DNA of 3,141 nt from a virus (taxonomy: Duplodnaviria; Heunggongvirae; Uroviricota; Caudoviricetes). Positions 292-3,141 of the stretch are shown here, piece by piece. A program made the translations under genes and the position numbers. How positions within the stretch are numbered: the first letter of the stretch is position 1; each line of letters starts with the position of its first letter. Location: the IMG/VR virus record IMGVR_UViG_2563366894_000005; one strand, written 5' to 3'. A model generated the notes under the pieces. That model was not told where the DNA came from, did no database searches, and saw only the letters and a list, made by a program, of their open reading frames with translations.

Positions 292-1332
292 ATGGCTACA
301 TCGACAGTAATTCCTGATGACATCAAAACGCAAAAATCCGACGTTAGCAAATTAAAAAACGATCAAGGAAGCTACGCAACAAAATTATATGTAGACAGCA
401 AAGATGAAATCGTTGGTGACTGGTCTGCTTCATGGTATCAGCAGGTATTGCCAACTAGCGGAGCTATATTTGGGAGAAAACTCCGCTCAACTCACAGGAC
501 GGCAGGTGTTGAGGATGCGTATTGCGAACTATACCTCAAAAAATGGATAGACAGTCCAGGTAACGCAATGGCGCGCCTTAACCTGAACGATAACGGGACA
601 AACATTTGCTGGGACTTTACCAACCTTTATGGCGGTACGATGATTTTTCCCGGTGACAGCGGATACCTCAAAATGGGTAACTGCCTTATGTCATACAGCA
701 AGCGTGGAAGTAACGCGCTTATTAAATTTGATTACACCGACACATTACAGATCAAATATGCCAATCATGGGTCAACCATGACATTAAACACACAGGGAAC
801 CGCTTATGCTGGTGTTACTGCTCAATTGTGGGGCAACACCAGCCGTCCTGTTGTTTATGAAGTCGGTGTTGATGGTGGCGCTTATATGTTCTATGCGCAG
901 AAAAATACCGATAACACCTATATGTTAAGCGTTAATGGTGCATGTCATGCCACCGCATTTAACCAGCATTCCGACCGGGATCTGAAAGACAACATTCAGG
1001 TGATCGATAATGCAACCGACCGCATCCGTAAAATGAACGGCTATACATACACGCTTAAAGAAAACGGTATGCCCTATGCTGGTGTCATTGCACAGGAAGC
1101 TCTGGAAGCAATCCCAGAAGTTGTAGGTTCCGCAATGAAATATCAGGACGGTGCAAGCGGATCGGAAGGTGAAGAAGGTGAACGTTATTACACAGTAGAT
1201 TATTCTGGTGTTACTGGCTTGCTTGTTCAGGTAGCCAGAGAGTCAGACGACAGAATAACAGCACTGGAAGAAGAAAACGCAGAATTAAGACAAAGATTAT
1301 CTGCAATTGAGGCGGCGCTTGCGTCTAAATAA
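292..1332 (+). CDS. Phage tail fibre / receptor-binding protein with C-terminal peptidase-S74-type intramolecular chaperone (autoproteolytic) domain
   Basis: 346-aa ORF with SD GAGGA 6 nt upstream. Residues ~227-346 carry the hallmarks of the endosialidase / T5 L-shaped-fibre chaperone domain as I know them: 'SDRDLKDNI' (candidate nucleophile Ser227 at nt 970-972, general-base Lys232), 'GVIAQEALEAIPEVV', 'YTVDYSGVTGLLVQ', then a coiled-coil tail 'ITALEEENAELRQRLSAIEAALASK'. Residues 1-226 are Gly/Asn/Thr/Tyr-rich, as expected for a receptor-binding region. Family assignment is by motif recognition, not search. Confidence 0.85.
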   Translation: MATSTVIPDDIKTQKSDVSKLKNDQGSYATKLYVDSKDEIVGDWSASWYQQVLPTSGAIFGRKLRSTHRTAGVEDAYCELYLKKWIDSPGNAMARLNLNDNGTNICWDFTNLYGGTMIFPGDSGYLKMGNCLMSYSKRGSNALIKFDYTDTLQIKYANHGSTMTLNTQGTAYAGVTAQLWGNTSRPVVYEVGVDGGAYMFYAQKNTDNTYMLSVNGACHATAFNQHSDRDLKDNIQVIDNATDRIRKMNGYTYTLKENGMPYAGVIAQEALEAIPEVVGSAMKYQDGASGSEGEEGERYYTVDYSGVTGLLVQVARESDDRITALEEENAELRQRLSAIEAALASK

Positions 1333-2856: not shown

Positions 2857-2906
2857 TCATTGGGATTATGCCGCAGACACGTCGTATGCAGGAACGTGCT
2901 GCGGTT
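2728..2906. repeat. Direct repeat copy B (tfa 3' end + hairpin), ~180 bp
   Basis: Partner of 1679-1856 in the same orientation. Together they bracket the methyltransferase gene, its promoter region and the unique 5' part of the tfaX-like gene. Confidence 0.8.
2871..2904. terminator. Second copy of the conserved hairpin, 3' of the tfaX-like gene (putative terminator)
   Basis: Left arm CCGCAGACACGT (2871-2882, one extra A as a bulge) and right arm ACGTGCTGCGG (2894-2904). The loop (CGTATGCAGGA) differs from copy 1 while the stem is kept. It is followed by a T-rich stretch, TTAGTTTGTGAGCTTT. Confidence 0.35.
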
Positions 2907-2970
2907 AGTTTGTGAGCTTTCGATAGTGGTTGTTATTTTTGCCCTTATTTGTTCCGGAGGCCATGGTTCA

Positions 2971-3141
2971 ATGGTCCGTCTGCCCCCTGTGGTGATGTCA
3001 GCAAAATCAGCCACTGCGCGAACCACAATAGCCCGGGAAGATGCTGAAGATCACCAGGTAAAGCTGTCAGCGCAGAAACTGGAAGAACTGCTCGCATCAA
3101 TGGTTAAGGATGAGGTTGATCGCAATGATGGGATTTATTGA
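2971..3141 (+). CDS. Hypothetical small protein (56 aa from ATG 2971; maximal ORF from TTG 2860 is 93 aa)
   Basis: Open frame ending at TGA 3139-3141. The first in-frame ATG is at 2971, with GGAGG (2956-2960) 10 nt upstream; another in-frame ATG is at 2995. The C-terminal part, 'EDAEDHQVKLSAQKLEELLASMVKDEVDRNDGIY', is charged and probably helical. I recognise no family. The TTG-start extension would overlap the hairpin at 2871-2904, so I disfavour it. Confidence 0.35.
   Translation: MVRLPPVVMSAKSATARTTIAREDAEDHQVKLSAQKLEELLASMVKDEVDRNDGIY

Follow-up and report, generated by a model that had tools for sequence, protein, structure and literature searches.

A short S74-type tail fiber gene in a portable lateral-fiber cassette of lambdoid phages

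In phage DT57C, a distal fiber protein that carries an S74 domain, LtfB, docks on a proximal fiber protein, LtfA (PMC4728585, PMC10713586), and in the T-shaped fibers of the BASEL collection a distal fiber with an S74 chaperone sits on a proximal fiber (10.1101/2024.09.12.612763). In the endosialidase endoNF, S911 and K916 of the S74 domain are both essential, and cleavage takes place N-terminal to the serine (PMC3828593). Here we analyze a 3,141-nt stretch of phage DNA (the window) that encodes a short S74 fiber. As with LtfA and LtfB of DT57C and DT571/2, a separate gene for an S74-bearing distal fiber lies downstream of a gene for a proximal fiber, and the DT57C pair is further matched in the short conserved N terminus, the variable receptor-binding regions, and the exchange of modules between phage groups. 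An extra lectin-like (galectin-like) domain is found on the proximal fiber, as on that of the BASEL phages. Unlike DT57C, the phage that hosts the present locus is lambdoid and temperate. LtfA and LtfB both carry an S74 domain, whereas the 794-aa proximal protein here has none and ends in a domain that resembles the GTA head spike fiber. Moreover, a 92- to 93-aa protein is encoded between the two fiber genes, and the distal fiber, at 346 aa, is much shorter.

The distal gene occupies nt 292 to 1332 on the + strand, exactly where a model's reading of the sequence (the first-pass annotation) had placed it. Its ATG follows a Shine-Dalgarno-like GGAAG motif by 5 nt, and its 346-aa product (WP_001615176.1) matches phrog_4563, "tail fiber protein" in PHROGs, over its full length. 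A 99.7% identical protein, with the annotation "tail fiber protein," is encoded by the infectious phage Tritos (PMC9928086). The Tritos paper is silent on the fibers of this phage (PMC9928086), and our literature search found no characterization of the 346-aa fiber. Tritos forms plaques on rough K-12 (PMC9928086), where the fiber may be dispensable.

A C-terminal S74 domain in which Ser227 acts with Lys232 had been proposed at the outset, and the Pfam search bears this out. Peptidase_S74 (PF13884) matches residues 227 to 278 over profile positions 1 to 57 of 58, with an E value of 5.8e-14 and a score of 52.6 bits against a gathering threshold of 22 bits; no NCBIfam model matched the protein. 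Profile position 1 falls on Ser227, which marks the start of the domain (residues 227 to 346; nt 970 to 1329, + strand). Ser227 (codon TCC, nt 970 to 972) stands in the motif SDRDLKDNI and Lys232 (nt 985 to 987) follows it at the S-x4-K spacing of endoNF S911 and K916. Across 84 homologues, conservation is at least 90% at S227, D228, and K232, and many other positions of the chaperone domain do not vary at all. In sequence and profile searches of the PDB, the domain matched the gp37 chain of phage S16 (structure 6F45); apart from this chain only T4 gp34 was recovered for the protein, and no chain named T5 pb1 or endosialidase. As in other S74 tail fiber proteins, the domain lies C-terminal to a fiber segment and ends in a predicted helix (residues 304 to 344, AF2 pLDDT of 83 to 91). 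At the level of sequence, these data confirm that the 346-aa product is a tail fiber protein carrying a C-terminal S74 chaperone with a correctly placed dyad.

This layout recalls the L-shaped fiber protein pb1 of T5 and the K1F endosialidase, with which the 346-aa protein has in common the C-terminal S74 domain, the S-x4-K motif, the predicted cleavage N-terminal to the serine, and the long C-terminal helix; as in pb1, the domain follows the fiber segment of a siphovirus lateral fiber. In contrast to pb1, the mature part comprises only 226 residues and has no counterpart of the pb1 tail-attachment domain, and in contrast to the K1F enzyme there is no sialidase domain. Outside the Pfam profile, PDB sequence searches detected no match of the protein to pb1 or endoNF. 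By homology, the chaperone domain (the last 120 residues) would drive trimer folding of the fiber that precedes it and would then cut itself off between His226 and Ser227, with Ser227 predicted to serve as the nucleophile and to become the new N terminus and with Lys232 predicted to be the general base. A mature fiber subunit of ~25 kDa would be left: the predicted masses are 24.9 kDa for residues 1 to 226 and 13.2 kDa for residues 227 to 346, in agreement with the ~24 and ~13 kDa estimated earlier.

Comparison of alleles and homologues divided the fiber part into conserved and variable regions. Residues 1 to 37 (nt 292 to 402, + strand) show little variability among 346-aa alleles and are conserved even in homologues of ~40% identity. 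They read M-[AV]-T-x-T-[VI]-I-P-x-D-I, followed by LKSDVS-type repeats whose copy number varies between homologues, and a helix is predicted at residues 12 to 27 (AF2 secondary structure). By analogy with the N-terminal 45 aa of LtfB (PMC4728585), we infer that this segment serves in docking, and it would also be the trimerization segment. Variable block 1 (residues 38 to 140; nt 403 to 711, + strand) exists in two allele classes that are ~20 to 60% identical per 10-residue block and are swapped as a unit; allele P0004 differs from the window protein in this block only. Variable block 2 (residues 175 to 226; nt 814 to 969, + strand) ends directly N-terminal to the predicted cleavage site and probably forms the distal tip of the fiber once mature. 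The differences of allele P0002 from the window protein fall mainly in this second block and in the chaperone-domain loop at residues 280 to 290. Judged by these alleles, the short fiber is a mosaic with two independently exchanged variable blocks.

No family had been recognized for residues ~50 to 226 in the first-pass annotation, but two relationships emerged. With a profile built from homologues, residues ~157 to 219, which overlap variable block 2, match a motif that is repeated in T4 gp34 (4UXE and 5NXF in the PDB; E = 9e-9), and residues ~130 to 226 are common to many other S74 tail fibers in PHROGs. Structure prediction added less. The AF2 monomer model was mediocre overall (pLDDT of 65, and below 50 for chaperone-domain residues 241 to 278) and gave no interpretable fold match in the PDB; within it, variable block 1 is beta-rich, with a pLDDT of ~75 to 85 for residues 50 to 110, and variable block 2 reaches 87 to 93. 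A model made from the single sequence (pLDDT of 35.6) was unusable. A Foldseek search of BFVD retrieved only other tail fibers, DT57C LtfA included, at TM scores of 0.2 to 0.4 that are driven by sequence.

The block-wise hypervariability, typical of receptor-binding proteins, and the gp34-like motifs in residues 1 to 226 also bear on what the protein does. Homologues in HMD-P4, KurtStettler, and ESCO3 are named "putative lateral tail fiber chaperone" or "endosialidase chaperone," and a short protein encoded downstream of a big fiber gene occupies the usual position of tfa. The 346-aa protein could on these grounds be an assembly chaperone that acts in trans on the upstream lectin-type fiber and never enters the virion. 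However, the database names go back to the title of the Pfam entry, "Chaperone of endosialidase," the S74 domain of characterized members works in cis, on its own polypeptide, before it is removed (PMC3828593, PMC4728585), and the big fiber works without an S74 protein in cassettes of the phage 21 type. With the features of residues 1 to 226 pointing the same way, we consider a role in trans highly improbable.

According to the first-pass annotation, the S74 fiber had taken the place of a lambda-type Stf. This is contradicted by an intact 794-aa Stf-like ORF that adjoins the window on its upstream side and ends at window nt 1. Since this gene is intact, the S74 protein is an additional, second fiber, and a short one. 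The 794-aa protein consists of a phage_tail_N domain (PF08400), Ala-rich repeats, and a C-domain of ~430 aa that matches NCBIfam GTA_spike_fiber and the RcGTA head spike fiber structure 6TB9; PF13884 did not match it. We also considered whether the 346-aa protein is itself a lambda-type Stf. This was ruled out, as the Pfam search did not find PF08400, the Stf tail-attachment domain, in the 346-aa protein and found it instead in the 794-aa ORF. Between the two fiber genes lies a gene for a 93-aa acidic companion protein (nt 1 to 282, + strand; pI 4.05; phrog_1361) whose ATG overlaps the stop codon of the Stf-like gene. The companion has no Pfam, NCBIfam, or PDB match, even by profile, and its homologues are encoded directly 3' of genes for fibers that share the lectin-like C-domain; these occur in lambdoid, T1-like, T5-like, Queuovirinae, and rV5-like phages.

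The three genes form a portable lateral-fiber cassette, made up of a proximal fiber with a lectin-like C-domain of ~430 aa, a 92- to 93-aa companion, and, optionally, a short S74 fiber. Its order is conserved in lambdoid, T5-like, and Nonagvirus phages and apparently in T1-like phages as well. The same gene order and spacing (large fiber, 92-aa protein, and S74 fiber of ~335 to 348 aa) recur in Tritos, Tequintavirus HMD-P4, and Nonagvirus JenP2, and also in two T1-like metagenomic contigs. With two-component fibers of the LtfA/LtfB type, the locus has in common an adjacent distal gene, a conserved N terminus, and variable distal parts (here two blocks), with synteny across four lineages. The S74 gene is the optional member because it is missing from phage 21, ev207, 1H12, Lambda_4C10, and Lambda_ev110, where the genes for the 92-aa and 97-aa proteins adjoin. 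When the flanks of the S74 insertion site were compared with the S74-less cassette, no repeats informative for insertion versus deletion were found.

Synteny also bears on where the short fiber is attached. The 93-aa gene always lies immediately 5' of the S74 gene, with a gap of 9 to 12 nt in four phage lineages, an arrangement that would suit a short fiber mounted on the tail tip or baseplate, either directly or through the 93-aa protein as an adaptor, so that it forms an independent second fiber set and not a branch of Stf. The allele of the Stf C-domain, moreover, does not track the presence or absence of the S74 gene, and docking on that domain therefore draws no support from co-variation. 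Set against this are three observations. The 93-aa protein also occurs in many S74-less cassettes and so is not dedicated to the short fiber; the same short fiber is found in lambdoid, T5-like, and Nonagvirus phages, whose tail tips are unrelated; and all of these lineages have only two partners in common, the lectin-type C-domain and the 93-aa protein. We regard attachment to the tail tip or baseplate as unlikely. From its sequence and neighbors, the short fiber is instead likely to be a distal or branch subunit of a multiprotein side fiber, in which it would be the optional third member of the cassette.

The cassette lies in the genomic slot of lambda Stf/Tfa (J, lom, stf...), and the PF08400 domain of the upstream protein and the remnants of tfa add to the likeness. 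In place of the receptor-binding C terminus of Stf and of Tfa, however, the present locus has the lectin-like domain, the 93-aa protein, the S74 fiber, and a 97-aa protein. The 97-aa gene (nt 1375 to 1668, + strand; phrog_1443) stands on the right of the cassette in its lambdoid version; its product has two strongly hydrophobic segments and is annotated in phage 21 as a putative membrane protein with two transmembrane domains. Between it and the fiber gene, directly 3' of the latter, is a terminator-like hairpin (nt 1339 to 1363, + strand) that reads GGGGC-CGAGC-GCCCC followed by GTTTTATT; phage 21, with its 92-aa and 97-aa genes side by side, lacks this hairpin.

Two Tfa remnants downstream of the fiber, as reported in the first-pass annotation, are real, although Tfa homology begins slightly inside the coordinates first given (1679 to 1807 and 2587 to 2856), at nt 1688 and ~nt 2680. 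Fragment 1 (nt 1688 to 1807, + strand) corresponds to the 39 codons at the 3' end of a gene for a 194-aa Tfa and marks the right edge of the cassette; within it, nt 1709 to 1804 match positions 103 to 130 of the 131-position Caudo_TAP profile (E = 5e-14). Fragment 2 is part of an 89-aa tfaX-like ORF (nt 2587 to 2856, + strand), of which only residues 32 to 89 (~nt 2680 to 2856), the last 58 residues of the 194-aa Tfa, are derived from Tfa; the ORF matches Caudo_TAP positions 75 to 130 of 131 (E = 1.7e-24). Neither stretch approaches a full-length Caudo_TAP protein (~131 positions, ~190 aa), and no intact tfa (Caudo_TAP) gene is present. Separating the two, on the - strand at nt 1862 to 2530, is an ORF for a class I SAM-dependent methyltransferase, identified by its domain match and by comparison with K-12 as the intact counterpart of the pseudogene ybcY. 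The window from nt 1688 to 2833 is colinear with tfaD-ybcY-tfaX of the K-12 prophage DLP12 (NC_000913), at 96.9% identity over 1,146 nt, and the two agree in gene order and in the truncation of the second tfa. They differ in that K-12 has a full-length tfaD (187 aa) and a ybcY pseudogene, while the window retains the last 39 tfa codons and an intact methyltransferase ORF. A literature search returned nothing informative on ybcY or tfaX. Farther right, a remnant ORF (nt 2860 to 3141, + strand) overlaps a DUF4376-type fragment that PGAP calls a pseudogene from nt 2953 on; it lies near the right end of the prophage, beside a truncated ompW.

The remnants had been explained by a module swap in which the S74 fiber replaced a lambda-type Stf/Tfa pair and the tfa genes, no longer needed, decayed in place. 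An S74 domain does give independence from Tfa in principle, no intact tfa is left, and fragment 1 represents the 3' end of a gene that related prophages have at full length, yet most of the evidence runs the other way. Beyond the intact Stf upstream, the junction of the 97-aa gene with the tfa 3' end is base-for-base identical in phage 21, a phage without an S74 gene, and is identical in Tritos too. Among 5,426 complete E. coli genomes, this junction is present in 1,865 (roughly a third) and the S74 fiber gene in 512 (roughly 10%), so that the junction is ~3.6 times as common as the gene to which the decay had been tied. The breakpoints are sharp, with fragment 1 starting exactly where the 97% identity to DLP12 starts, which is unlike gradual decay. 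The second fragment had been read as leftover decay, but it belongs to the tfa'-methyltransferase-tfa' module, found in 3,832 of the 5,426 genomes, and is equally truncated in O121 RM8352 and FG31-1, where the same module follows a classical Stf and includes a full 194-aa tfa. 

We conclude that the swap as first formulated is largely refuted, and we consider it quite improbable for this locus. One part of it stands, in that a module was exchanged at fragment 1; the loss of Stf and the decay of tfa for lack of need do not. Because related prophages carry the full 194-aa tfa in the same module after a classical Stf, sequence comparison identifies fragment 1 as a recombination scar, the point at which a foreign cassette recombined into the tfa gene and took the place of its 5' four-fifths. 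Fragment 2, by the same comparison, is part of the widespread tfaD-ybcY-tfaX module and not a product of decay after a swap. As phage 21 and the infectious phage Tritos carry them too, the tfa fragments are fixed scars and not genes decaying in situ.

In the arrangement that we favor, the short fiber as a branch of the side fiber, the first cassette member is the ~430-aa lectin-like C-domain of the 794-aa protein, which is anchored to the tail through its Stf N-terminal domain, the second is the acidic 92- to 93-aa companion, and the third is the short S74 fiber; in lambdoid phages the 97-aa membrane protein comes next. The short fiber would dock onto the Stf-like proximal fiber through its conserved first ~37 residues, in the manner of LtfB on LtfA in DT57C, and would so provide a second element for receptor binding, whose ligand would most likely be a surface glycan, for example the O-antigen. 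The specificity of the short fiber would be set by the two independently exchanged variable blocks. In the source strain, the portal gene of the prophage is split by ISEc10; therefore, this prophage on its own probably makes no virions that contain the fiber.

The 346-aa gene encodes an ordinary, already catalogued phage tail fiber protein, the tfa scars beside it are common to many E. coli prophages, and no new mechanism is revealed. The value of the analysis is mainly corrective: the S74 assignment was right, and the link between a self-chaperoning fiber and decaying tfa genes was wrong. As a by-product, it defines a portable lateral-fiber cassette found both in lambdoid prophages, which are temperate, and in several groups of virulent siphoviruses. 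The result is relevant to efforts to predict or engineer host range in lambda-like phages and in phage-derived delivery particles, and it singles out two small conserved proteins, of 93 and 97 aa, that are easy to test. More tentatively, with the odds somewhat against it, the 346-aa protein may be a universal plug-in branch fiber of lambdoid, T1-like, T5-like, and Queuovirinae phages, whose N-terminal 37 residues, perhaps jointly with the 93-aa protein, dock on the lectin-type C-domain. If so, temperate lambdoid phages would have branched side fibers with up to three independently swappable specificity determinants (the Stf lectin domain and the two variable blocks), and virulent and temperate phages would exchange the cassette with each other.

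The 346-amino-acid protein encoded at nucleotides 292 to 1332 (+) does carry the C-terminal S74 domain that the first-pass annotation had predicted: a Pfam HMM search placed Peptidase_S74 at residues 227 to 278, starting from profile position 1 (E = 5.8e-14). The residues proposed to act in self-cleavage, Ser227 (codon 970 to 972) and Lys232 (codon 985 to 987), both lie within SDRDLKDNI, and in alignments of 19 and 84 homologs, S227, D228, and K232 are at least 90% conserved, with much of the chaperone-domain core invariant. Their S-x4-K spacing is that of the S911/K916 dyad of endoNF (PMC3828593), and the predicted cleavage products have computed masses of 24.9 and 13.2 kDa, in agreement with the ~24 and ~13 kDa anticipated. 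The chaperone domain also matches the gp37 chain of phage S16 (structure 6F45). Databases already list this protein (RefSeq WP_001615176.1, "tail fiber domain-containing protein"), which belongs to a well-known class, the S74-chaperoned lateral tail fibers found in mosaic cassettes. Along its entire length it matches phrog_4563 ("tail fiber protein"), its relatives bear names that include "peptidase S74" and "chaperone of endosialidase," and phages Tritos, PhiR63_1, 2G7b, and HannyBb encode proteins 98 to 99.7% identical to it. The lambda-like phage Tritos, of AIEC strain LF82, is infectious and forms plaques on MG1655 (PMC9928086). At a coverage threshold of at least 80%, the S74 gene is present in 512 of 5426 complete Escherichia coli genomes. 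A strong terminator-like hairpin (1339 to 1363) lies directly 3' of the gene. Phage 21 has neither this hairpin nor the S74 gene, and the two appear to move together; the hairpin would set the S74 gene transcriptionally apart from the downstream gene for a 97-amino-acid protein.

The genomic surroundings bear on the claim that this fiber had replaced an Stf/Tfa pair. Several E. coli chromosomes contain the 3141-base window at 100% identity; in strain Ecol_316 it sits at the right end of a lambdoid prophage whose insertion site is ompW, next to the trp operon. There, gpJ, lom, and an Stf-like gene precede the window, which contains, in order, the 93-amino-acid ORF (1 to 282), the 346-amino-acid ORF, the 97-amino-acid ORF (1375 to 1668), a tfa fragment, a methyltransferase gene in reverse orientation, another tfa fragment, and a DUF4376 fragment; truncated ompW follows. 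The Ecol_316 prophage is probably defective, since its portal gene is interrupted by the IS21-family element ISEc10 (1 to 4563 of the prophage locus, L001). The fiber-cassette ORFs are intact despite this interruption. Directly upstream, an intact 794-amino-acid ORF (L001 17617 to 20001), whose stop codon overlaps nucleotide 1 of the window, encodes a protein with the Stf N-terminal domain (PF08400) and Ala-rich repeats that matches phrog_1419 end to end. Because this Stf-like ORF is still in place, the S74 protein is an additional fiber protein and no replacement for Stf. PGAP splits the gene into two pseudogene pieces 1 kb apart, yet the ORF is continuous; the SETNAK-type Ala-rich repeats probably broke the pipeline's alignment. 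The ~430-residue C-domain of the Stf-like protein (L001 18700 to 19998) matches NCBIfam GTA_spike_fiber (E = 2e-15) and, weakly, the head spike fiber of the Rhodobacter capsulatus gene transfer agent (PDB 6TB9; E = 3e-4), to which these profile matches relate it distantly. From phage to phage, the C-domain is 33% to 92% identical, suggesting that it is itself a variable glycan-binding module.

The two decayed Tfa-type fragments reported downstream are real: both match Caudo_TAP and correspond to the last 39 (fragment 1, 1688 to 1807) and last 58 (fragment 2, within 2587 to 2856) residues of a 194-amino-acid Tfa. Nucleotides 1688 to 2833 are 96.9% identical to K-12 DLP12 from the tfaD 3' end through ybcY to tfaX. 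In O121 strain RM8352 and in FG31-1, a classical Stf and a full-length Tfa of 194 amino acids precede the same tfa-methyltransferase-tfa module, and there too the annotation shows the downstream tfa as a fragment without its N terminus. Since that gene is truncated even beside a complete Stf/Tfa pair, fragment 2 is uninformative about the S74 fiber. Fragment 1 is a genuine scar, in which a cassette took the place of the Stf C terminus and the first ~155 tfa codons, and to this extent the replacement scenario stands. The S74 fiber is not its cause. The window, Tritos, and phage 21 share an identical junction sequence (…GTGGGTGAAAAAAGGTGAGCTGTATATGCAACGGAGGAAGAAAC…), although phage 21 has no S74 gene, and the combination of the 97-amino-acid gene and this junction was counted in 1865 genomes, ~3.6 times the S74-gene count. 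The scar is therefore tied to the cassette of lectin-type Stf and the 93- and 97-amino-acid proteins rather than to a self-chaperoning fiber, and functional phages carry it as a fixed feature, in contrast to the in situ decay originally envisaged.

The methyltransferase segment is present in 3832 of the 5426 genomes, placing this ybcY-type gene among the most widespread E. coli prophage cargo genes. The class I SAM methyltransferase gene (1862 to 2530, -) is an intact ORF of 222 amino acids here and in most genomes and a pseudogene in K-12. A 45-amino-acid ORF (1780 to 1917), annotated here and in other genomes as hypothetical protein WP_001309429.1, overlaps the ends of fragment 1 and the methyltransferase gene (3' end) and is probably an annotation artifact of the conserved module. 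Just past each tfa stop codon (1822 to 1870 and 2871 to 2928; also L002 10252 to 10310) lies a ~50-nucleotide segment with an inverted repeat (GCCGCAGCACG...CGTGCTGCGG), likewise present in Tritos; a conserved terminator at tfa 3' ends is one possible role for it, a recombination site another. The tfa/ybcY junction is also a cargo-insertion hotspot, as shown by O157:H7 strain E32511, whose prophage (L008 1790 to 4003) holds a manganese catalase gene and yciE/yciF/yciG-like genes between a full-length tfa and a ybcY-like methyltransferase gene. The yci-like genes are annotated as two ferritin-like domain proteins and a general stress protein, as are yciE, yciF, and yciG in L001.

Within the 346-amino-acid protein, residues 1 to 37 are conserved even at ~40% identity and comprise MATxTVIPxDI followed by LKSDVS-type repeats of variable copy number, with a predicted helix at 12 to 27. 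Variable block 1 (38 to 140) is followed by a conserved stretch (141 to 174) and by variable block 2 (175 to 230 plus the chaperone-domain loop at 280 to 290); residues ~157 to 219 match a motif that recurs in T4 gp34 (profile E = 9e-9). Relative to the window protein, homologous allele P0004 differs in block 1 alone, P0002 mainly in block 2, including the 280 to 290 loop, and P0023 in both, a pattern of sequence differences indicating that the blocks are exchanged independently. We propose that the S74 domain would aid trimerization and then release itself by cutting at His226/Ser227, and that the 25-kDa mature trimer would enter the virion as a distal or branch element of a multiprotein side fiber. 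By analogy, the conserved N terminus may anchor the short fiber to the lectin-type Stf protein and the variable blocks may bind a variable surface glycan. These proposed roles are supported by the docking of LtfB on LtfA in DT57C (PMC4728585, PMC10713586) and by BASEL T5-like fibers, in which an S74-chaperone distal fiber sits on a proximal fiber with a lectin-like domain (10.1101/2024.09.12.612763). No covariation between Stf C-domain alleles and S74 presence was found that would favor this docking partner.

The Stf-like C-domain is joined to lineage-specific N termini and followed by an acidic protein of 92 to 93 amino acids, whose start overlaps the fiber-gene stop; this pair occurs in lambdoid, T1-like, Dhillonvirus, T5-like, Queuovirinae, and rV5-like phages. 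In a subset (Tritos, Tequintavirus HMD-P4, Nonagvirus JenP2, and two T1-like metagenomic contigs, with proteins just ~40 to 50% identical to their window counterparts), a gene for an S74 fiber of 333 to 348 amino acids lies 9 to 12 nucleotides farther on. Since only this subset carries it, and since the 92- and 97-amino-acid genes directly adjoin each other, without an intervening S74 gene, in phage 21, ev207, 1H12, Lambda_4C10, and Lambda_ev110, the short S74 fiber is an optional part of a conserved cassette. The 97-amino-acid membrane protein (phrog_1443) is ~94 to 100% identical in most of the lambdoid coliphages listed, while neighboring fiber genes vary widely; its gene is always joined downstream to the same tfa 3' scar, and distant homologs adjoin tail-fiber genes in Aeromonas and Halomonas phages. 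As a guess, it might act in lysogenic conversion or exclusion. The 93-amino-acid family (phrog_1361), for which no relative was found in Pfam, NCBIfam, or PDB, is invariably located 3' of fiber genes with the lectin-like C-domain across five or more phage groups, rV5-like myoviruses among them, and could be a dedicated chaperone or tip subunit. The interest of the locus lies mainly in this cross-lineage cassette and its two small proteins.
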